This document shows, piece by piece, positions 9,040 through 31,838 of a DNA stretch of 43,194 bases (position 1 is the stretch's first letter; the number at the start of each line of letters is the position of its first letter). The stretch spans positions 1 through 43,194 of the forward strand of contig CAIOXK010000020.1 of NCBI GenBank assembly GCA_903862255.1. Reading direction: 5' to 3'. This stretch comes from Candidatus Nomurabacteria bacterium (lineage in GTDB: Bacteria; Patescibacteriota; Minisyncoccia; Phycocordibacterales; UBA9973). Both the position numbers and the translations under genes were made by a program. Below the pieces are notes generated by a model that saw only the letters and a list, made by a program, of their open reading frames with translations, did no database searches and had not been told where the DNA came from.

Positions 9040-11285
<2,246 letters not shown>

Positions 11286-22556: not shown

Positions 22557-24080
22557 TTATTCTACGTGAACAGTAATGTCTGTTCGTTCATTTTTCAGTT
22601 TGAGCCACAGTACAGAGAATGCACCAACTAGCACAATAATACTTGAAACAGTAAACACATAGTTATATGCATCGATCTGCGCCTTGAGCTCAATCAGTGT
22701 AATAAACTTCTGAATATCTAATGGATTATGACTATAGAGATGGCTCAAGCTATTGATATGTAAAATATTACTCTTAGTACGATTAGTTAAAATTGTACCG
22801 AATACTGCGATACCAAATGCTCCCGCAACGTTACGAGCAAGTGCCAAAATTGAAGACGCAATACCAATTTCATGCTGATCAACAACAGAAGCAATAACGT
22901 TTGTACGTTGTGCCATACCGAAACCGAGACCAAATGCCATGACACATAACGGAAGCATGAGACTCAATGCGGTTGATTTTGGATCAAGTGATGAAAACAT
23001 ATACAAACCAAGTGCGGTTACAATTGTGCTAGCAAAGATCACATATCGTGCCTGAATCTTTCCCGCCAACGCACCACCGATTGGTGCCCCTGCCATCAAC
23101 GCAACGGCCATCGGCATAAAGAGATATCCAGTTTGTGTTGCATTGTAACCAAGAAATGTTTGGGCAAATACTGGCAACAAAAACAATCCACCCATCAATC
23201 CCATGAATACTACGAAATTATTAAGTAATGTATTAACGAATGCTGGAATTTTGAAAAATCGTAAGTCAACAATCGGTTCTGATACAACCTTCTCAATGCG
23301 AATAAATAGTCCTGTCAAAACAACAATCAAGAAATAGCAGATCAAGCTTGAGGCTGACATCCATCCCCACTCTGCACCTTTGTCGAGCACTAGAACAAGT
23401 GCTGAAAGCATTCCGCCAAGTGATAGTGCGCCCCACCAGTCAAAGAATGTAGACGTAATTTCAGACCGAGATTCATTAATGAATCTCATTGCCATAAGTA
23501 ATCCAAGAATACCGACAGGTAAGTTAATTAAAAACACTGAGCGCCATCCGAAGTGGTCAATGAGTGGTCCTCCGAGTAATGGTCCAAATACACTTGCTGC
23601 AGCAAATGAACTAGACCAAATACCAAGCGCTTGCCCGCGCTCTTTACCTTCTTTAAAAGTTACTGCCAAGATTGCCATAGCTGTTGGATAGTCTGCAGAT
23701 CCGGCAATAGCTTGAATCACGCGAAATACAATCATTGATGGCAAGTTCCATGCGAAACCAGCAAGTACTGATCCAATAATAAATACGGTGAAGCCGATGA
23801 TATAGACCTTTTTACGCCCAATAGTATCACCTAATTTACCCCAGATGGGCACAAAAACTGCATTGGCTAGAATATAAGCAGTAGCAATCCATCCCGCAGA
23901 ACTTACACTAATCCGGAAATCACTGATGATATTTGGTAGTGCTAAATTAACAATAGTTTGATCGAGACGGCCAAGAAACGTGCCTACAATTACTGTGAGT
24001 AAAATCCACCATTTCAAATTACTAGTCTTCTCTTTTACATCTGGAACGGTTTCAGTTGTTTTTTCAACCTCCCTTTCCAT
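22557..24080 (-). CDS. MFS transporter, DHA2 (EmrB/QacA-like, 14-TM) drug:H+ antiporter family
   Basis: 507 aa with about 14 TM helices. The motifs LDQTIVNLALPNI and GKLGDTIGRKK are typical of MFS DHA2. Confidence 0.9.
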   Translation of the reverse strand: MEREVEKTTETVPDVKEKTSNLKWWILLTVIVGTFLGRLDQTIVNLALPNIISDFRISVSSAGWIATAYILANAVFVPIWGKLGDTIGRKKVYIIGFTVFIIGSVLAGFAWNLPSMIVFRVIQAIAGSADYPTAMAILAVTFKEGKERGQALGIWSSSFAAASVFGPLLGGPLIDHFGWRSVFLINLPVGILGLLMAMRFINESRSEITSTFFDWWGALSLGGMLSALVLVLDKGAEWGWMSASSLICYFLIVVLTGLFIRIEKVVSEPIVDLRFFKIPAFVNTLLNNFVVFMGLMGGLFLLPVFAQTFLGYNATQTGYLFMPMAVALMAGAPIGGALAGKIQARYVIFASTIVTALGLYMFSSLDPKSTALSLMLPLCVMAFGLGFGMAQRTNVIASVVDQHEIGIASSILALARNVAGAFGIAVFGTILTNRTKSNILHINSLSHLYSHNPLDIQKFITLIELKAQIDAYNYVFTVSSIIVLVGAFSVLWLKLKNERTDITVHVE

Positions 24081-24081
24081 A

Positions 24082-24717
24082 TTATTTGATGTAGACAGTC
24101 ATCTTAGCGGACATGCCATTTTTAAATTCTGGATGAGCTGCAATATCGTAACGAGCCTTCACTGTGAAATTCTTTGTTTCGCGCTGATCAGAGATAGTAA
24201 AAGCTACACCTGAATCGTTTGAAGTTGGACTAATTTCATCGATAACACCAGTAAATTTCTGGCCGCCATATGCATCAACAGTAAATGTAACTGTCTGCCC
24301 TACTTTTAAATCTGAAAGACCTTTATCTTCTTCGATTGTACCAACTACGCGTAATGCTGTCGGGTTGATCATGGTAACTACTGGAGCACCTGGAGCAAAT
24401 ACCTGACCAGGAGTGTCCTGAGTGGTAATAATAGTACCTGCAACTTTTGCAGTAAGTACTTCACTACCTACACGCGCAACAGGTTCATCAACAGTAACTG
24501 TGTCACCTGGCTTCACATATACTTCTGCCAATATACCCGACGCTTCAGGGCCAATAGTAATAGTTGGTGCAGTGATTTGTGATTTGTCGATTGATACATG
24601 AGATGAAAGAGATTTCCATACCAATGCTCCACCCAACAATAGAACGATCACGATAATACCAACAAGGCTCTGTACCCATGGTTTTGAAAAAATACTTTCT
24701 TTTTGTGTTTGTTCCAT
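24082..24717 (-). CDS. HlyD-family membrane-fusion / adaptor protein (short)
   Basis: 211 aa with an N-terminal TM anchor, a lipoyl-like VKPGDTVTVDEPVARV motif and a beta-barrel-like C-terminus. It abuts the MFS gene with a 1-nt gap. Confidence 0.75.
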   Translation of the reverse strand: MEQTQKESIFSKPWVQSLVGIIVIVLLLGGALVWKSLSSHVSIDKSQITAPTITIGPEASGILAEVYVKPGDTVTVDEPVARVGSEVLTAKVAGTIITTQDTPGQVFAPGAPVVTMINPTALRVVGTIEEDKGLSDLKVGQTVTFTVDAYGGQKFTGVIDEISPTSNDSGVAFTISDQRETKNFTVKARYDIAAHPEFKNGMSAKMTVYIK

Positions 24718-24721
24718 AAAT

Positions 24722-25699
24722 TTATTTTGTAGTAAGACTGATAACTGTTTTATTTTGAATTACAGACTGCCCTGTCTTAAGGTCAGCATCAATAAATGAC
24801 ACTGTGCCACTTGTTGGAGCAATGATAACATTGTTCTTGTAGGCACCGAGTGCCGTCTGATATACACCACGAGCGCTATCGACTGCCGCCTTAGCAGTAT
24901 TTGCTGCTGAATTTTTACCTAGATTTGCAGCGAACTGACTCAACACTTGGTCGCGCGTTGATACAGCTAAATCATAATTATTTTTATTTGTAACATATGT
25001 CGCTGACTTAATATTTGGAATATCAATAGTCCACATTGTTGCACCTGCAAATCCAGGGGCAAATTGAATATAGAGACCGCAAGTACCTATTGGTTGTGGT
25101 GTACTGTACGTCACAATACCATTACCATTTTCTAATCCTTTATATGTAAATGAGAAACCAGAGTTTGTGCCGGATGGGTACGGATCAATTTGATACGACC
25201 CCTCCGCCTCACAGTTATATGTACCAGTGATGCTTGGAATATGACTATCATCTTGTATGCTAGGCGTAGCGACAAGGCCACTTGAACGCATTGTACGAAG
25301 AGCATTTTGTACAAGCACATCTTGTTGTTTTTTTGCATTAGCGAATTGCACGTCTTGTGAAGCGTATTGTGCTTCAGCCAGCTCTAATGCACCCTTTGCT
25401 TGCGTTATAGCTCCTTGTGCATCACTAGCATCAAGCATTGCAAGCGTTTGACCTGCAGTCACATGATCGCCAGTTTTCACAGATACAGATGCTACGCGAC
25501 CACCCTTAGGAAATGCTAGGTCAACAGTATTATCTGAAGAATTTGTAACAATAGTTCCTGAAGATGTTAGTTCGGCAACTGGTGGAAGATTTACCAGAGG
25601 TGCTTTGCCAACAATACGGAACAAGACTACTGCTGCAACAACTGCAACCACTGCAACGATTGGAATAATTACTTTTGGTGTATTAAAAATTGATTTCAT
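24722..25699 (-). CDS. HlyD-like adaptor protein with a large inserted domain
   Basis: 325 aa with a TM anchor. The lipoyl-like VKTGDHVTAGQTLAMLD motif and the C-terminal half (APTSGTVSFIDADLKTGQSV) are split by about 150 aa of non-coiled-coil sequence. Confidence 0.65.
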   Translation of the reverse strand: MKSIFNTPKVIIPIVAVVAVVAAVVLFRIVGKAPLVNLPPVAELTSSGTIVTNSSDNTVDLAFPKGGRVASVSVKTGDHVTAGQTLAMLDASDAQGAITQAKGALELAEAQYASQDVQFANAKKQQDVLVQNALRTMRSSGLVATPSIQDDSHIPSITGTYNCEAEGSYQIDPYPSGTNSGFSFTYKGLENGNGIVTYSTPQPIGTCGLYIQFAPGFAGATMWTIDIPNIKSATYVTNKNNYDLAVSTRDQVLSQFAANLGKNSAANTAKAAVDSARGVYQTALGAYKNNVIIAPTSGTVSFIDADLKTGQSVIQNKTVISLTTK

Positions 25700-25704
25700 A
25701 ATGA

Positions 25705-26136
25705 TTATTTAACAAGTGTTTTGATGATATCTGATAACTGCTGTTTCTGTTCTGTGCTTAATTTTTTGAGCATATGCATAAGCATATTCTTTTTCTTTGC
25801 GCGCAACGTTGCTGAGAGTTTTACTGCTTTTGGGGTGAGCATAATATGAATAGTGCGACGGTCTCCAGAGCTAGTATCACGCTTAACCAGTTCAAGCTCT
25901 ACCATTGTTTCAATAATACTAGTAACTGACGGTGGTGTTATTTGCAAATACCCAGCAATATCTTTCATTGAAGGATTAGTATGTTCGGCAATATAGTGCA
26001 TCACCTCCAAATGCGAAAGTGAGCAATGCAGACTGCTTGTCTCTTTTTTATACAAGTCACTCATTGTACGCTTAAATACACTAAGCAGCTCCTGTAATTC
26101 AGTAATATCAAATGTTTGGGTGGGAATATTTGTCAT
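25705..26136 (-). CDS. MarR family transcriptional regulator
   Basis: 143 aa with a winged HTH (MKDIAGYLQITPPSVTSIIETMVELELVKRDTSSGDRR). Confidence 0.9.
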   Translation of the reverse strand: MTNIPTQTFDITELQELLSVFKRTMSDLYKKETSSLHCSLSHLEVMHYIAEHTNPSMKDIAGYLQITPPSVTSIIETMVELELVKRDTSSGDRRTIHIMLTPKAVKLSATLRAKKKNMLMHMLKKLSTEQKQQLSDIIKTLVK

Positions 26137-26291: not shown

Positions 26292-26966
26292 ATGCGTATT
26301 TTAGTTATAGAAGACGAAAAGGACTCACAAGACTATCTCAGAGATCGACTTAGAGAAAAAAGCTTTGCTGTTGATATTGCTGACACCGGCACTAGAGGAA
26401 TATATCTAGCCAAGACAAACGAGTACGATCTAATATTATTAGACTATGCCCTGCCCGAGAAAAATGGCTTTACTGTTTGTGAAGACCTAAGAACCTCCTG
26501 CATTCATACACCAATTATTATGATGTCTGTTTCGGATGCCTCAACCTATAAGGTACGTGGATTAAATATTGGTGCTGATGATTATGTATCAAAACCATTC
26601 TCGTTTGAAGAATTACATGCTCGCATGCAGGCAATATTGCGCAGGCCACAAGGGATACAAAGCTCATTATTAACAATTGATGATTTAGTATTAGATTCTG
26701 CCAAACAGATAGTTACGAGAGACGGCAAGTCAATTTATTTAACCCGTAAAGAATTTTCACTGCTCGAATACATGTTAAAACATAAATCAGTAGTCGTATC
26801 TCGCGGGCAAATCATGGAGCATATTTGGGATCTTGACTTAGACCCGTTTTCAAATACTATAGAGACACACATTCTTAATTTAAGAAGAAAAATTGAAGCT
26901 CCTTCGAAGACTAAATTAATTCATAGTGTTCCAGGTCGCGGATATAAAATTGATCTTATGAGATAA
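26292..26966 (+). CDS. OmpR/PhoB-family response regulator
   Basis: 224 aa. The receiver domain (ILVIEDE, LILLDYALPEKNG) and the winged-helix output domain (LTRKEFSLLEYML, VPGRGYKI) are both present. Confidence 0.93.
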   Translation: MRILVIEDEKDSQDYLRDRLREKSFAVDIADTGTRGIYLAKTNEYDLILLDYALPEKNGFTVCEDLRTSCIHTPIIMMSVSDASTYKVRGLNIGADDYVSKPFSFEELHARMQAILRRPQGIQSSLLTIDDLVLDSAKQIVTRDGKSIYLTRKEFSLLEYMLKHKSVVVSRGQIMEHIWDLDLDPFSNTIETHILNLRRKIEAPSKTKLIHSVPGRGYKIDLMR

Positions 26967-27038
26967 TTTATTCAATATTTTAATTATTTTTATCCCCTAT
27001 TTTCTATACTCTTATTGAGCTATAGAGTCGAATAGCTT

Positions 27039-27179
27039 ATGAATAAATATATCAATCACAGTATGAACAAAGTCATTGAAACCATCCTTACAGTCCCGAG
27101 TTCTCGTACTACAGAAAAAGCAAAACAGGTAGCTTATTCACAAGGTGGTTTTATACCGTGGGAAAATAGCGAAAATTAA
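27039..27179 (+). CDS. Possible 46-aa ORF between the response regulator and the kinase (below the ORF-track size cutoff)
   Basis: Own translation: MNKYINHSMNKVIETILTVPSSRTTEKAKQVAYSQGGFIPWENSEN. It fills most of an otherwise unexplained 232-bp gap. No Shine-Dalgarno sequence, though these seem generally absent here. Confidence 0.3.
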   Translation: MNKYINHSMNKVIETILTVPSSRTTEKAKQVAYSQGGFIPWENSEN

Positions 27180-27198
27180 ATACTAGATAAAACATACA

Positions 27199-28665
27199 AT
27201 GAATACCCGTCATCGAAACAGCAATGCTCAACTCAACATCAGGGCTTTGCTCAGGCGAGGTATTCATTTTATGTATTTACGACTTATAGAATCAGCATCA
27301 ACAAATGAAGACATTAGACGACATGAATTTATATTAAATACTATTCTTTCGTGCACTATAGGACTACTTACAGTACTCGATGTATATATTGCAATTGCAA
27401 CAATAAAATGGGGCTCGCTATACCATGGTATTCCATTTACGTATTTTACATTTGTAATTATTATATTTATATATCTGTTTATCTTATCAAGAAAAGGCTA
27501 CCATAGAGTAAGTAGTTTTTTACTATTATTACTGTATTTTATTGGCACCACTTTTGGTGCTGTAGAGTGGTCAATCTGGCTACCGTTTATAGGTATTAGT
27601 TATGTACTAATTATAGTCTTTGCTAGTATTTTAATTTCAACTAGATTTTCTATTTATGTAACACTGCTAAATATATTCACCATTTGTTTTGTTTCTTACC
27701 TTCAGATCAAGGGTTATATACATGTAAATTTGGAATGGAAGCATTCCTGGATTTCGATGCATGAACCAATACAACTTTCGTTTGTACTATTTGTCATTAC
27801 TGCAGCTTCTTGGTTGTCTAATCGCGAAATGGAACACTCACTGCAGCGAGCGCGTATTTCAGAGCAGGCATTACTAGAAGAAAGAAATTTATTGGAAATA
27901 AAGGTTGAGGAACGAACAGCAGAATTAAAAGAGTTGCAGAAAGAAAAGATTGCTCAATTATATCGCTTTGCTGAATTTGGCAAATTATCTACTGGCGTAT
28001 TTCATGATTTAATGAATTCACTACATAGTGTCGCAAACAATGTCGAGCGACTGTCAATGTCAGAAACTAATGTACCGGAAATAAAAGAACATATTATAAA
28101 AGCCGTGAGTGCAAGTAAACGCATGGGTAACTATATTGAGACCGTTCGTAAACAAATTAGCAATAAGGAAATAGTGGCTGTGTTTTCACCTGCAAAAGAA
28201 ATTGCTGATGCAATAGATATTGTTCATTTTAAGGCGCGAGAAGCAAATGTCCAGATAACTACACAGACAACTACTGAAACCTTATTGCATGGCAATGCTA
28301 TTAAATTTTACCAAGCAGTATCTAATATACTCATGAATGCAATTGAGGCATGTGAGGAATATGGTAATGACCAAAGTCTTATTATTGTTACGCAAATATC
28401 AACCCCTACTCATATAGTGATCACTATTCGAGATAATGGCTGTGGCATGGATCCCCTAACGCAAGAACAAGTTTTTGATGCATTTTTTACCACAAAAATA
28501 TATGGCAAAGGTACAGGATTTGGACTGTCTCAAACAAAAGAAATTATTGAAAAAGAATTTGGAGGCACAATAACTGTACATAGCGTTAAAGATATTGGCA
28601 CAATATTTACAATTACACTACCAATTCGTGAGTATAACAAAACAGATTCACCAGACAATCAATGA
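27199..28665 (+). CDS. Sensor histidine kinase, intramembrane-sensing type (multi-TM N-terminus, no large extracytoplasmic loop)
   Basis: 488 aa with about 6 N-terminal TM helices and a coiled coil. The H-box (GVFHDLMNSLHSV), N-box (NILMNAIEA), G1 (RDNGCGM) and G2 (GTGFGLS) are all present. Confidence 0.9.
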   Translation: MNTRHRNSNAQLNIRALLRRGIHFMYLRLIESASTNEDIRRHEFILNTILSCTIGLLTVLDVYIAIATIKWGSLYHGIPFTYFTFVIIIFIYLFILSRKGYHRVSSFLLLLLYFIGTTFGAVEWSIWLPFIGISYVLIIVFASILISTRFSIYVTLLNIFTICFVSYLQIKGYIHVNLEWKHSWISMHEPIQLSFVLFVITAASWLSNREMEHSLQRARISEQALLEERNLLEIKVEERTAELKELQKEKIAQLYRFAEFGKLSTGVFHDLMNSLHSVANNVERLSMSETNVPEIKEHIIKAVSASKRMGNYIETVRKQISNKEIVAVFSPAKEIADAIDIVHFKAREANVQITTQTTTETLLHGNAIKFYQAVSNILMNAIEACEEYGNDQSLIIVTQISTPTHIVITIRDNGCGMDPLTQEQVFDAFFTTKIYGKGTGFGLSQTKEIIEKEFGGTITVHSVKDIGTIFTITLPIREYNKTDSPDNQ

Positions 28666-30475
28666 GGCATTTAGATTTATCGCATCACAACAACAAGCAG
28701 ATGGCTGTTTTTTAAGCGACTTAAATAAAAACACAACGTTTTATACTAGCTTAATACTTGCCACTAATATACATACTAAAAATGAAGACTGGTGCGTAGT
28801 TCAAAAATGTGCAGCTGATTTTGTCCTAAGTCAATGTTCCGAACTGCAAACAATTAATTACTGGGCCCGTAACAGTAATGAATATATAACTAACCCTTAT
28901 CCAGACGATATTGATGACACATTTGTTGCAATGCAGGGGTTATACAATTACGATGCATCTTTGATTACAGAAAAACGATTAGCTATGCTTATTTCACTTT
29001 TGCTGCGGCAAGAAGTTGTCGCTGGAGGACCCTATAAGACATGGATTACGTCATCACCTTCTCCTGAATGGCAAGATGTTGATGTTGTCGCCAATAGTAA
29101 TGTGGCAAGTTTTTTATCCTTACTCAATATAAACCTCCCACCATTACAAAAATATTTCGAAGGACAAATCATTAATAAAACAATGTCAAAATATTATGAC
29201 AATGAAATAGTACGGCTATACTTTATCGCCCAAGCCATAACAAATAAAGATGCGGTTATCGAAAAAATACTATTATTACAAAGCTGTGATGGTACATGGG
29301 ATACCCCTCTTCACACAGCTTTGGCCGTCAGTGCTCTTATTCGATTTAATAAAAATAATTTAAATCTTTTGCCAGCTATTCATTTTTTACTAAATACTGC
29401 TAAAAATGGCCAATGGTCAGCAACAAATCTTTATATAGAAACAATAGGCGCTACAGGGTCAACGTATAGTAGTTGTAATGCCTATATAAGCGTATGTTGT
29501 GTTGCAGCACTATCTTTGTATATAAATATGAAGGATTATAATGGCATAACTGTTGATAGAGCTGAAGTAATTTTTATTAAAAATGTTAAAGAGCATTGCT
29601 TATTAATCACAGATAATGATTTATTATCGAATCAACTGCAGTACGCACTCTCACTGTTAGCTATTAAAGACCCCCAACATGAAATACAGTTGTTATCATA
29701 TAAATTTTACCAATCATTGTTCGATAAAAAATCTGTGCCACATGAATTACCCTTACAGTTAGCTATTGCTAACACTCTAGGATGGATTGGCTATAGTATT
29801 TATGATCGAATTTTAGATAGAGAAAACTGTATAGTGCAATTGCCCTTGGCAAATGTTTGCATTGAAGCAATGACAGATATATTTCACTCAGTACTATCAA
29901 TAGAAGAATATACTATATTCAAAAGAATTATTAGTGGCATTAATGAGGCAACACTGTGGGAACATACTAACTGCACTATTATATCCGATGTATTACCAGA
30001 AACACCGCCTGATTATAATGACCTTATCGTTCTGGCCAAAAAGTCTCTTGGACACGCATTAGGCCCAATACTTATTTGCTGTAAACTAGGTGAACTTAAG
30101 CAAGCACAATTAGTTGAAGAATTTTTCATTCATTATTTAATAGCAAAACAATTAAACGACGATGCACACGATTGGGTAGAAGATTTAAGCAACGGCTTTA
30201 TTAATAGTGTGAGTACAAGAATAATCAATTATTGTAAAACTTATAATATTGAGCAGTTACAAGAATATTTTTGGAACTATCATATCGATGAAGTAGTTAC
30301 AACTATTTTTCACAACATAACTCTTGCCCGCAACATACTAAAAAAGGTTACAGCCATTGCTGACGTAACCTATTTAGATTCATTACTCACACCGCTTGAG
30401 CAATCTTCCCTTCAAGCGAAGGAAGAGCGCAATAAGACTAAGCAATTTTTACATGAATTTCAAAAAATTAATTAG
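28595..30475 (+). CDS. Fusion protein: N-terminal class II terpene-cyclase-like alpha/alpha-toroid domain plus C-terminal class I isoprenoid-synthase-like (squalene/phytoene-synthase-like) domain
   Basis: 626 aa. N-terminal half: DDIDDT-FVAMQGL at nt 28904-28921 (compare SHC DVDDTAVVVWAL), a QW-like QSCDGTW at nt 29279-29299, and further Q-x-x-DG repeats (QQADGCF, KNGQW). C-terminal half: YDRILD (DxxxD) at nt 29804-29818, and 118 aa later AKQLNDDAHDWVEDLSNG at nt 30158-30184 (compare AFQLTNILRDVxEDxxRG of squalene/phytoene synthases). The only ATG start overlaps the kinase gene by 71 nt; GTG at 28628 is an alternative. Confidence 0.55.
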   Translation: MAQYLQLHYQFVSITKQIHQTINEAFRFIASQQQADGCFLSDLNKNTTFYTSLILATNIHTKNEDWCVVQKCAADFVLSQCSELQTINYWARNSNEYITNPYPDDIDDTFVAMQGLYNYDASLITEKRLAMLISLLLRQEVVAGGPYKTWITSSPSPEWQDVDVVANSNVASFLSLLNINLPPLQKYFEGQIINKTMSKYYDNEIVRLYFIAQAITNKDAVIEKILLLQSCDGTWDTPLHTALAVSALIRFNKNNLNLLPAIHFLLNTAKNGQWSATNLYIETIGATGSTYSSCNAYISVCCVAALSLYINMKDYNGITVDRAEVIFIKNVKEHCLLITDNDLLSNQLQYALSLLAIKDPQHEIQLLSYKFYQSLFDKKSVPHELPLQLAIANTLGWIGYSIYDRILDRENCIVQLPLANVCIEAMTDIFHSVLSIEEYTIFKRIISGINEATLWEHTNCTIISDVLPETPPDYNDLIVLAKKSLGHALGPILICCKLGELKQAQLVEEFFIHYLIAKQLNDDAHDWVEDLSNGFINSVSTRIINYCKTYNIEQLQEYFWNYHIDEVVTTIFHNITLARNILKKVTAIADVTYLDSLLTPLEQSSLQAKEERNKTKQFLHEFQKIN

Positions 30476-30710
30476 TGGTAGTATTTTGGGTTGTAGTAGT
30501 AGTTTGCTGATATGTTGTAACTGGTGTAGTGGTGTAAGTCGTCGTATGAGTTTCTACTGGTACAGTTGTACGAATAACTGGTGCTGTTCTCTCAACTGTT
30601 GTTGGGTAATACATCTGGTACACACTGTGCGGAAGAAAATAAACTGCCAAAATTACGGCTAGGATAATAATCATTACTATAATGAGCGCTCTGTTTGTAT
30701 GATCATTCAT
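30468..30710 (-). CDS. Small single-TM protein with an extreme Thr-rich tail (80 aa)
   Basis: MNDHTNRALIIVMIIILAVILAVYF is followed by a tail with T-runs (THTTTYTTTPVTTYQQTTTTTQNTTTN). Its 3' end overlaps the convergent 626-aa gene by 8 nt. Confidence 0.5.
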   Translation of the reverse strand: MNDHTNRALIIVMIIILAVILAVYFLPHSVYQMYYPTTVERTAPVIRTTVPVETHTTTYTTTPVTTYQQTTTTTQNTTTN

Positions 30711-30778: not shown

Positions 30779-30967
30779 ATGAATAATGACGAAATTAACA
30801 CAAATACGGAATACATTTCAGAAGATGAGTTAAATCAAATTGTGGGCAAAGACGGCGAAGCGATAGACTTAATTGAGCAAGTGCAAGAAGAGGACGCAAA
30901 AAATGCTCTTAAGGCCGGCATTATCGGTGACGATGATAATCAGCAAGATGAAATACTCGATAAATAA
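30779..30967 (+). CDS. Small highly acidic protein (62 aa)
   Basis: ATG ORF with TAATAT 8 nt upstream, rich in D/E. It overlaps the start of the YihY gene by 20 nt. Confidence 0.45.
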   Translation: MNNDEINTNTEYISEDELNQIVGKDGEAIDLIEQVQEEDAKNALKAGIIGDDDNQQDEILDK

Positions 30968-31838
30968 TATTGCTGTATTCGTCACTGAGACGTTTACTCA
31001 TTGGCAGGAAAAACGGGCTTCACGTATGGGTGCAGCTATCTCATACTATGCAATTTTTTCAATTGCACCGCTATTCATACTAATTACTACTATGGTACGA
31101 GCTATCTTTGATAGTCATACGACGACTCTGGCTATTGCTCGTGCGTTAAACATAACTATCGGTAGCAATCTAGCGGCGGTAATACAAGGCTTAATAAATA
31201 AAAGCTATATTACTAATGCTGGAGTAATAGCAACAATTATTGGGGGGCTTATACTTATCGTAGCAGCACTAAGTGTGCTTGCAGAATTAAATAATGATTT
31301 GGATGAATTATGGCAATTACCAGAAGGCCGCGCTCCGTTAAAAAACACCCCGACACAGACAGTGGTGCACTTTATTCGTGAACGATTTATTTCGCTATTT
31401 CTGATCCTTATCTGCGGTATATTATTGTTATTTTCTGTAGCATTTACAGTTTTGTTATCATTTTTCCATGGCACAACATTACTATTACTACACAACAGTT
31501 TCTTGACCGGAGGGGCGAATAGTATTGCAACACTAATTATAACAACAGTACTATTCAGTTTGGTTTACAAGATATTACCCGATACAAAATTACCAACTAA
31601 GGAACTATTTTGGGGAGCATTTGGTACTGCGCTTCTTTTCTTGATCGGTAAGTTTCTAATTTCTTGGTATATTTCTGCGTATGGCGGCATTGATGAATAT
31701 GGTGCAGCAGGGTCAATTGTGGGATTATTATTATGGATTTATTATTCCGCTCAGGTATTTTTTATTGGAGCATCAGGAACGTTTGTTTATTCAAAAAAAT
31801 ATGGATACCTTGCAAGGAATAAGCTTATTGTAGATTGA
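30948..31838 (+). CDS. YihY/BrkB (virulence factor BrkB / ribonuclease-BN-like) family membrane protein
   Basis: RMGAAISYYAIFSIAPLF is the family signature, with about 6 TM helices. I place the start at ATG 30948 (MKYSINN...) rather than the track start 30873, which lies inside the acidic ORF. Confidence 0.85.
   Translation: MKYSINNIAVFVTETFTHWQEKRASRMGAAISYYAIFSIAPLFILITTMVRAIFDSHTTTLAIARALNITIGSNLAAVIQGLINKSYITNAGVIATIIGGLILIVAALSVLAELNNDLDELWQLPEGRAPLKNTPTQTVVHFIRERFISLFLILICGILLLFSVAFTVLLSFFHGTTLLLLHNSFLTGGANSIATLIITTVLFSLVYKILPDTKLPTKELFWGAFGTALLFLIGKFLISWYISAYGGIDEYGAAGSIVGLLLWIYYSAQVFFIGASGTFVYSKKYGYLARNKLIVD

Follow-up and report, generated by a model that had tools for sequence, protein, structure and literature searches.

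Introduction

In the comQXPA system, ComQ, a member of the isoprenyl diphosphate synthase (IPPS) superfamily, geranylates or farnesylates a tryptophan near the C-terminus of the precursor ComX, which ends in ...RQWGD. Patescibacteria, for which the name Candidate Phyla Radiation (CPR) is also in use, make up much of the diversity of bacteria; their genomes are minimal, and their cells live attached to those of a host. In the literature, we found no description of a peptide-pheromone or ComQ/ComX-type system in CPR bacteria. In this study, we analyzed a stretch of 43,194 nucleotides from a Candidatus Nomurabacteria bacterium (contig CAIOXK010000020.1 of assembly GCA_903862255.1, positions 1 to 43,194; hereafter, the window), which carries a gene coding for a fusion of a class II terpene cyclase domain with a domain of IPPS fold. 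Our results indicate, with a probability of roughly 0.6, that this fusion enzyme is the modifier in a four-gene peptide-signaling cassette comprising a regulator, a precursor of about 37 aa, a membrane kinase, and the fusion enzyme itself.

Two kinds of described systems come close to this locus. In Paenibacillus, the kinase PalP is found together with the precursor PalX, which has a conserved C-terminal tryptophan, and with PalQ, a tryptophan prenyltransferase of isoprene-synthase fold (PMC10853753). The StheQ/StheX pair of Chloroflexi is of the same kind, and StheQ combines an IPPS fold and Mg2+ at the first Asp-rich motif (FARM) with K174, Q212, and a pseudo second Asp-rich motif (pseudo-SARM) formed by N215, D216, and D219; N-to-D mutants at the pseudo-SARM N-D of ComQ and StheQ lose 90-98% of their activity (bioRxiv 10.64898/2026.08.29.745113). 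On the other hand, prenyltransferase and cyclase are fused in NctPC and ChrPC, maturases of RiPPs (peptides made on the ribosome and modified after translation) with an ABBA-type and a trans-isoprenyl-diphosphate-synthase (trans-IDS)-like P domain, respectively (PMC13290415, a 2026 review; primary source Hubrich et al. 2024, Chem 10:3224). The P domain of ChrPC prenylates an internal tryptophan with C10-C20 donors before the MstE-like C domain cyclizes the chain, and indole recognition in ChrPC-type enzymes has been proposed to involve a conserved Gln together with the first Asp of the SARM (PMC13290415). In bacteria and fungi, more than 1,000 fusions of a prenyltransferase with a cyclase are known (bioRxiv 10.64898/2026.08.29.748031).

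Results

The fusion gene lies on the + strand, and its open reading frame (ORF) begins at TTG 28595 or GTG 28628 and stops at 30475. The GTG start agrees with the N-termini of the homologues and is the one taken in the public gene call (P0001, 615 aa). Since the upstream kinase ORF ends at 28665, the two genes overlap by 38 nt from the GTG or by 71 nt from the TTG, exactly as proposed in a first-pass annotation made from the sequence alone. That annotation had described the protein as a squalene-hopene-cyclase-like domain fused to a squalene/phytoene-synthase-like domain. The ORF and every motif it relied on are real in the translation and conserved among 63 homologues: QQADGCF, QSCDGTW, KNGQW, and the acid motif DDIDDT, together with the Asp-rich motifs YDRILD and QLNDDAHDWVED of the C-terminal half, which were correctly placed 118 residues apart (D393 to D511). 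The residue counts given below refer to an alignment of these 63 members, which are 29-53% identical to the window protein. A full-length AlphaFold2 (AF2) model was made from the cluster representative P0001, whose sequence departs from that of the window translation at 2 residues; the model reached a predicted local distance difference test (pLDDT) of 94.3 and a predicted template-modeling score (pTM) of 0.86, and from the latter value the two domains are taken to pack rigidly.

A class II cyclase toroid, of the protonation type, makes up the N-terminal half. In a family-profile search, it matched the class II (TC-beta) domain of the drimenol synthase of Aquimarina (AsDMS; 9mhs/9m7d) with an E-value of 2.4e-14, and squalene-hopene cyclase with 0.009 only. 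The drimenol synthase was reached by the family profile only, as a search of the PDB with the window protein as a single sequence gave no match. When the window protein alone was scanned against Pfam and NCBIfam, the output consisted of sub-threshold squalene-hopene cyclase matches (TIGR01787 at 23.6 bits against a cut-off of 322.7, and SQHop below its gathering score), with nothing for the C-terminal half. In the family-profile alignment, D94 and D96 fall on the catalytic D331 and D333 of AsDMS, and Y189/Y190 on Y426/Y427. Both aspartates are essential in AsDMS, where D333 is the proton donor and is held by Y427 (PMC12365925). In the family, none of the 63 homologues lacks D94, D96, or T98 of the DxDDT motif, while 61 have D97 and 60 have D93; the consensus around the motif is PYPDDLDDT. 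E129, the GGPY motif, W139, and D152 are likewise kept in 63/63.

In the AF2 model, this domain forms a single alpha/alpha toroid of about 300 residues. Its Foldseek matches include 8pak (chains of about 345 aa; 5e-8) and the Streptomyces drimenyl diphosphate synthase SsDMS (3e-5), and MstE is not among the matches listed. Taken together, the family-profile match, the one toroid of about 300 residues, and the Foldseek matches identify the N-domain as a class II cyclase with a single beta domain, of the same kind as drimenol synthase and MstE. Thus, the label 'squalene-hopene-cyclase-like' is justified by the DxDDT motif and the toroid repeats, which are common to both, but not by the architecture, as squalene-hopene cyclases are beta-gamma didomains of about 630 aa. 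The fusion protein also departs from AsDMS, with which it shares the single beta domain, the catalytic D-x-D, and the Tyr partner. It has an IPPS-fold fusion partner, it contains no HAD phosphatase domain (Pfam scan and model), and the diphosphate-binding R378/R380 of AsDMS align with a conserved W148/D150 in the CPR family. At least 90% of the members have K or R at positions 70, 81, and 202, so that only the AsDMS Arg pair is unconserved. The presence of W148/D150 in place of these arginines is a weak hint that the substrate of the cyclase domain may carry a head group other than a diphosphate.

The C-terminal half, when modeled alone (AF2, pLDDT 96), retrieved trans-prenyl diphosphate synthases as all of its 50 best PDB neighbors in Foldseek, with TM (template-modeling) scores up to 0.72-0.73. 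They comprise hexaprenyl, heptaprenyl, octaprenyl, solanesyl, geranylgeranyl diphosphate (GGPP), and farnesyl diphosphate (FPP) synthases, and there is no squalene/phytoene synthase and no terpene cyclase among these 50. The sequence IARQLNDDAHD aligns with the AFQxxDDxxD motif of 16 polyprenyl synthases encoded by neighboring genes (hhalign, E 0.0014). D393, D397, S473, Q508, D511, H514, D515, and D519 are present in 63/63 homologues, and position 472 is always K or R. Hence, the domain possesses a FARM (D393/D397), a K/R-S pair at 472-473 that resembles the K-T motif, and a SARM in which Q508 stands one turn ahead of a canonical DDxxD followed by an extra Asp (D511, D512, D515, and D519). 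The window FARM reads D-R-x-x-D and the family consensus DDxxD, with D at the second position in 42/63. As a side observation, residue 394 of the window protein (nt 29807-29809) is Arg and residue 413 (nt 29864-29866) is Glu, whereas Arg413 is kept in 58/63; we discounted this possible R394/E413 charge swap as evidence because it is a lone instance in the window protein.

The fold and the Asp motifs, held across homologues with as little as 29% identity, support the assignment of the C-domain to the trans-IPPS branch of the class I isoprenoid-synthase superfamily. The first-pass annotation had the superfamily and the two conserved Asp-rich motifs right. In contrast, its squalene/phytoene-synthase reading of this half was rejected from the profile and fold evidence: SQS_PSY matches neither the window protein nor appears among the 25 most-matched of the 43 Pfam families hit by the 63 members, the structural neighbors are of another type, and the SARM aligns with polyprenyl synthases. 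The register that had prompted this reading, with Asp at Q+3, +7, and +11, is correct and is indeed common to squalene/phytoene synthases, but the trans-IPPS match lies at Q+3, +4, and +7. Pfam polyprenyl_synt matches 1/63 members (E 0.017), and other stray Pfam matches are Terpene_syn_C_2 in three members (E 0.04) and DUF5685 in one.

Between the regulator and the kinase, we found a small ORF that the first-pass annotation had not listed and that codes for a proposed precursor peptide (Table 1). The same ORF is deposited as P0279, a 38-aa hypothetical protein. We compared 86 loci, namely the window, five loci from exact-protein look-ups, and 80 genome loci, and a peptide hidden Markov model (HMM) run on 33,201 six-frame segments matched 75 of them with E-values from 3e-16 to 7e-3. 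The matches are always on the + strand and just upstream of the kinase, in a regulator-kinase gap of about 110-500 nt in most loci (typically 170-260). In the 11 loci with no match, the sequence ends too near the fusion gene upstream to include the peptide position. The peptides follow the consensus M-x5-K-x-L-T-D-K-x-A-R-x16-P-W-x(1-6), with a median length of 37 aa among 70 distinct sequences and a middle section that is hydrophobic in many lineages. A tryptophan lies 1-6 residues from the C-terminus in every one of the 75 peptides, preceded by a proline in 59, and this tryptophan is an invariant column of a 41-sequence alignment, as are L9 and R15 of the leader. In the window peptide, it is Trp33. 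In public databases, these peptides appear as 'hypothetical proteins' of 33-46 aa with no family assignment.

The two-component link of the fusion gene, already proposed from the window, extends across CPR classes: a histidine kinase lies immediately upstream and on the same strand in 81/86 loci, at about 30% identity. Three of the five loci with no adjacent kinase begin at the fusion gene itself. The remaining two are genuine exceptions, namely L070 and L061; in L061, a 238-aa ORF (1635-2351, +) separates the kinase from the fusion gene. A response regulator is found upstream on the same strand in 61/86 loci. By hydropathy, the window kinase has about six transmembrane (TM) segments with short loops within residues ~44-168, followed by a FixL/AtoS-like core; this core matches FixL, ZraS, and AtoS in PDB and NCBIfam searches. 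We also considered an AgrC/ComD (HPK10) type on account of a HATPase_c_5 match and an HDxxN-like H-box, and rejected it, as FixL/AtoS/ZraS gave the best matches and AgrC only 7e-6. The best NCBIfam matches of the response regulator are CopR/RppA/PhoB-like.

The family is large and, among the genomes examined, occurs in Patescibacteria only. Metagenome bins of this phylum contain hundreds of full-length relatives, which are about 600-660 aa long and, with few exceptions, are named 'hypothetical'. A profile search of 1.84 billion representatives yielded at least 1,500 clusters (50% identity) with E<=1e-30, a number that rises to 3,318 when the limit is set to E<=1e-3. The best 150 clusters of the 1,500 all have the two-domain architecture at full length, and no outgroup from outside the CPR was seen in this search, the best 150 being all family members. 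A pattern scan with one genome per species located relatives in 305 genomes. The 80 genomes that provided loci cover Paceibacteria, Nomurabacteria, Microgenomates, Daviesbacteria, Levyibacteria, Shapirobacteria, Roizmanbacteria, Saccharibacteria, Doudnabacteria, Colwellbacteria, Moranbacteria, and CPR2. Six contigs with the cassette (L018, L021, L027, L031, L041, and L049) are titled 'uncultured Gammaproteobacteria', 'Vitreimonas', 'Methylomirabilota' or 'Sulfotelmatobacter', and are probably mis-binned or mislabeled Patescibacteria. In addition, the precomputed annotation of several homologues (P0004, P0015, P0019, P0020, P0036, and others) includes Pfam PF28380.1, for which a literature search returned nothing. 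Part of the fusion family may thus be covered already by a more recent release of Pfam.

The peptide gene has its own upstream region, made of repeats, a TATACT-like box, and a hairpin, in roughly half of the loci; in the remaining loci, the regulator is directly followed by the peptide gene with a strong Shine-Dalgarno sequence. We counted motifs within 150 nt upstream of the peptide ATG in 69 loci. TTTATC occurs in 22/69 of these regions against 4.4 expected, and TATACT in 14/69 against 2.5 expected. T-rich direct repeats spaced about 11 bp apart precede the -10-like box in L012, L056, L068, L079, and L080, and the repeat type differs by lineage (TTTATC/TTTATCC, TTCTTTAC, or TTCTTGAG). A spacing of about 11 bp is the geometry expected for binding by OmpR/PhoB-type regulators and suggests that the cassette may be autoregulated. 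A generic scan for sigma-70 promoters and terminators upstream of the peptide gene showed no enrichment.

The hairpin is found in about 25-30 related loci, where it ends 18-49 nt ahead of the peptide ATG. Its stems covary in sequence between loci, while the loop always ends in (A/G)GTCGA. GGTCGA is present in 25/69 upstream regions against 1.9 expected, and 75% of the GGTCGA sites have a stem of 6 bp or more, compared with 18% of the background. Rfam had no match for this regulatory region. A distance of 6-12 nt separates the hairpin from the TATACT-like box upstream, so that the transcript may have this hairpin at its 5' end.

Other genes accompany the cassette less regularly. A polyprenyl diphosphate synthase gene adjoins it in 17/86 loci, where it follows the fusion gene or separates the regulator from the kinase; the encoded proteins carry DDxxDxxxxRRG and best match short-chain GGPP/FPP synthase models. 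There is no such gene within the 43-kb window. A BrkB/YihY-family gene follows the fusion gene only in the closest loci, of Paceibacteria/Nomurabacteria type (L001 and L006-L012). Its product could be an exporter or an unrelated neighbor, and its membership in the cassette is uncertain. In the window, the 3' end of the fusion gene is overlapped by a convergent 80-aa ORF (30468-30710, -), which has a Thr-rich tail and a single hydrophobic segment, and the counterpart of this ORF in L001 is called as an 82-aa gene at 9854-10102 (-). Directly upstream of the regulator and divergent from it, positions 22557-26136 (-) hold an efflux-type operon coding for MarR, two HlyD/YknX-like proteins, and a major facilitator superfamily (MFS) transporter, which is syntenic in L001.

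Table 1. Position of the cassette, its sequence motifs and neighboring features in the window, with examples from other loci
Feature	Position	Strand	Evidence or remark
OmpR/PhoB-type response regulator (receiver + winged helix)	26292..26966	+	Pfam Response_reg 2.3e-26, Trans_reg_C 4.2e-24
Putative regulator-dependent promoter (tentative): T-rich TTTATC-type repeats, TATACT -10-like box	26967..27015	+	Motif counts
Stem-loop TGAGCTAT-AGAGTCGA-ATAGCTTA, loop with constant (A/G)GTCGA	27016..27039	+	Ends 23 nt before peptide ATG
Small ORF, 38 aa, MNKVIETILTVPSSRTTEKAKQVAYSQGGFIPWENSEN, proposed precursor peptide (P0279)	27063..27179	+	Peptide HMM
Membrane histidine kinase	27199..28665	+	Pfam HATPase_c 7.7e-23
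Fusion protein, class II terpene-cyclase beta domain (alpha/alpha toroid), N-terminal	28628..29542	+	Family profile, Foldseek, model
Fusion protein, DDIDDT motif	28904-28921	+	
Fusion protein, trans-isoprenyl-diphosphate-synthase-fold (class I) domain, C-terminal	29543..30475	+	Model, PDB neighbors, hhalign
Fusion protein, YDRILD motif	29801-29818	+	
Fusion protein, second Asp-rich motif	30149-30184	+	
BrkB/YihY-family membrane protein, downstream of fusion gene	30873..31838	+	Pfam Virul_fac_BrkB 1.3e-42
Hairpin equivalents in other loci	L036 5293-5321, L075 5031-5057, L084 5345-5373		
Polyprenyl synthase examples in other loci	L002 9941-11044, L003 9903-10922	-, +	15 further loci

Discussion

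The fused enzyme kind has been known since 2024, and so is the logic of ComQXPA and PalPXQ. However, our literature search found no report that joins fused prenyltransferase-cyclase chemistry with this logic, and none in CPR bacteria. The features that are new here are the reversed domain order, the canonical SARM, the very short precursor, the obligatory two-component partner, and the phylum-wide distribution in the CPR. The first-pass annotation had suggested a free membrane or signaling terpenoid as the product. The signaling half of this suggestion is kept, while the free terpenoid gives way to a prenylated and cyclized peptide, since a conserved tryptophan ORF was found and ComQXPA, PalPXQ, and ChrPC/NctPC provide precedents. 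In the same sense, the position of the fusion gene beside a kinase, a regulator, and the tryptophan peptide makes a lipid-decorated peptide signal likelier than a free membrane terpenoid. We consider that the peptide is quite probably the substrate of the fusion enzyme, and that the chance of it being an autoinducer falls a little short of even.

The proposed pathway would begin in the C-domain: Mg2+ at D393/D397, together with K472, would hold an allylic prenyl diphosphate of C15-C20, and the domain would ionize it. In some genomes, a short-chain polyprenyl diphosphate synthase joins the cassette. The prenyl group would then be moved onto the invariant tryptophan of the peptide, with Q508 and D511 positioning the indole. 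Meroterpenoid cyclases act after prenyl transfer, and the same logic is proposed for the N-domain: D96, held by Y190, would serve as the acid and deliver a proton to the distal double bond of the peptide-bound chain, which would fold into a polycyclic terpenoid. Prenylation followed by cyclization is the order that we prefer on chemical grounds, as a fully cyclized C15 diphosphate would no longer be allylic. The matured and probably trimmed peptide would leave the cell and be sensed by the multi-TM kinase, which would phosphorylate the OmpR-type regulator; the regulator, in turn, would feed back on the cassette promoter.

Among described enzymes, ChrPC shares with the fusion protein the combination of a trans-IDS-like prenyltransferase and a single-domain class II cyclase with a DxDD acid in one polypeptide. 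The Gln and SARM Asp proposed to recognize the indole in ChrPC-type enzymes correspond to Q508 and D511, and the substrate of ChrPC is a ribosomal tryptophan peptide, in line with the adjacent tryptophan ORF at our loci. Unlike in ChrPC, the cyclase occupies the N-terminal and the prenyltransferase the C-terminal position, the precursor of about 37 aa has its own leader type, a two-component system is associated, and the genomes examined place the family in Patescibacteria only. In 2024, Hubrich et al. reportedly predicted further maturases, over 2,200 in number, and the CPR family may be among them; the product of their fused maturase is reportedly modestly anti-cyanobacterial. With ComQXPA and PalPXQ, the cassette has in common an IPPS-superfamily enzyme, a small tryptophan precursor, and an adjacent multi-TM kinase and regulator, all on one strand. 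The CPR peptides, which end with ...PW plus 1-6 residues, resemble ComX with its terminal ...RQWGD in this respect. Compared with comQXPA, the order is regulator-peptide-kinase-enzyme instead of Q-X-P-A, the regulator is OmpR/PhoB-type instead of the NarL/LuxR-type ComA, and the additional class II cyclase domain means that the lipid would be cyclized. Neither Pfam nor NCBIfam gave a ComQ-type family match for the window protein. Since its second Asp motif is a canonical DDxxD and not N-D, the fusion enzyme is not a strict member of the ComQ family.

Several of our observations weigh against a peptide-signaling cassette. The canonical SARM is one of them, because the residue equivalent to the StheQ N215 is D511, an Asp in 63/63 members. 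No sequence-level match to ComQ, Ord1 or any prenyltransferase was obtained in Pfam, NCBIfam, PDB, and family-profile searches, and the likeness to ChrPC is drawn from its published description. The kinase core is FixL/AtoS-like and not of the AgrC/ComD type typical of peptide sensors, and the regulator is OmpR-type and not ComA-type. In addition, the cassette includes no conserved gene for a dedicated protease or exporter, and one locus, L070, whose fusion protein has 705 aa, shows no kinase within the 1.3 kb covered upstream (positions 1-1300).

An explanation closer to the first-pass annotation, which we regard as unlikely, is that the enzyme makes a free cyclic terpenoid from a polyprenyl diphosphate or from a head-to-head product, for use as a membrane lipid or as a diffusible signal. 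The two-component system would regulate this synthesis, perhaps as a membrane-state sensor like DesK/DesR, and the small ORF would be an unrelated regulator or a kinase accessory. This would fit with the conservation of terpenoid-enzyme catalytic motifs in both domains, with the polyprenyl synthase adjacent in 17 loci, with the all-membrane, short-looped sensor of the kinase, and with the acidic triad D511/D515/D519, whose i, i+4, i+8 spacing resembles metal-binding motifs of terpene cyclases and squalene synthases. However, it leaves the co-conserved tryptophan peptide unexplained, and the C-domain shows neither an SQS_PSY match nor a terpene cyclase or squalene synthase within its top 50 structural neighbors, the terpene-synthase Pfam signal being confined to the three members mentioned above. 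The alignment of R378/R380 with W148/D150 also speaks, if weakly, against a diphosphate as the substrate of the cyclase domain, and a class II-then-class I sequence would need a chain of at least C20, given that the cyclized C15 diphosphate would have lost its allylic character. A DesK/DesR-like membrane-fluidity module with a hopanoid-like lipid was demoted after the conserved tryptophan peptide was found.

The same tryptophan-prenylated, cyclized peptide could also be an effector rather than an autoinducer, that is, an antimicrobial or host-interaction lipopeptide inserting into host or competitor membranes. The two-component system would then control its production or confer self-protection, as in lantibiotics, where the product may also act as an inducer (nisin). 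CPR episymbionts must engage host envelopes, and the hydrophobic middle of the peptide in many lineages would suit such a role, as would the anti-cyanobacterial activity reported for the product of a fused maturase. Nevertheless, the near-universal pairing with a kinase and a regulator, in a small cassette that includes no immunity or export genes, is better suited to pheromone systems such as ComQXPA and PalPXQ, and we find an effector improbable as the sole explanation, bearing in mind that effector and autoinducer roles are compatible and not mutually exclusive.

It is far less plausible that the C-domain is an ordinary chain-elongating synthase that supplies FPP or GGPP to the fused cyclase, leading to a product of the drimenyl- or copalyl-diphosphate type. 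The structural neighbors are chain-elongating trans-IPPS, the fold with its FARM, K-S motif, and canonical SARM is common to both, and the many known prenyltransferase-cyclase fusions could be taken as a parallel. On the other hand, chain-elongating trans-IPPS (PF00348) carry the basic IPP (isopentenyl diphosphate)-binding motifs GKRxR and RRG after the FARM, whereas the family consensus reads DDFLDxEG and not DDxxDxxxxRRG at this position, GKRxR is absent, and polyprenyl_synt matches a single member. Furthermore, true polyprenyl synthases are encoded next door in 17 loci, where a second elongating enzyme would be redundant, and the tryptophan peptide again finds no explanation. Finally, the protein could be a non-catalytic accessory or sensor that binds isoprenoids and modulates the kinase, for instance according to polyprenyl-phosphate or lipid II status. 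This is very improbable despite the translational coupling or overlap with the kinase gene, the existence of toroid repeats in non-catalytic binders, and weak TED_complement matches in 29/63 members, because a pure binder would not be expected to keep the DxDDT with its Tyr partner and the FARM/SARM aspartates, at about 30% identity, in all or almost all of the homologues.

Peptide signaling through the fusion enzyme thus remains our preferred reading, and it bears on annotation as well as on the biology of the phylum. The names 'hypothetical protein' or 'terpene cyclase/mutase family protein' can be replaced on thousands of genes, and a gene of 33-46 aa that has been systematically ignored is now flagged. 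The retention of the cassette across many classes, in at least 1,500 clusters at 50% identity, indicates that it is probably important to CPR bacteria. We tentatively propose, with the odds leaning against it, that it represents an ancient, phylum-wide CPR signaling system, for cell-cell communication or host sensing, in which a dedicated membrane kinase would read a new class of molecule, a short tryptophan-prenylated and cyclized ribosomal peptide made by the fusion enzyme. If true, this would be, as far as our literature search went, the first peptide quorum-sensing-like system in ultrasmall episymbionts. If the proposed chemistry is right, the modification of peptides with cyclic terpenoids, first reported in 2024, would gain a large new set of enzymes and would be linked to signaling for the first time, and communication among CPR bacteria would become directly testable.

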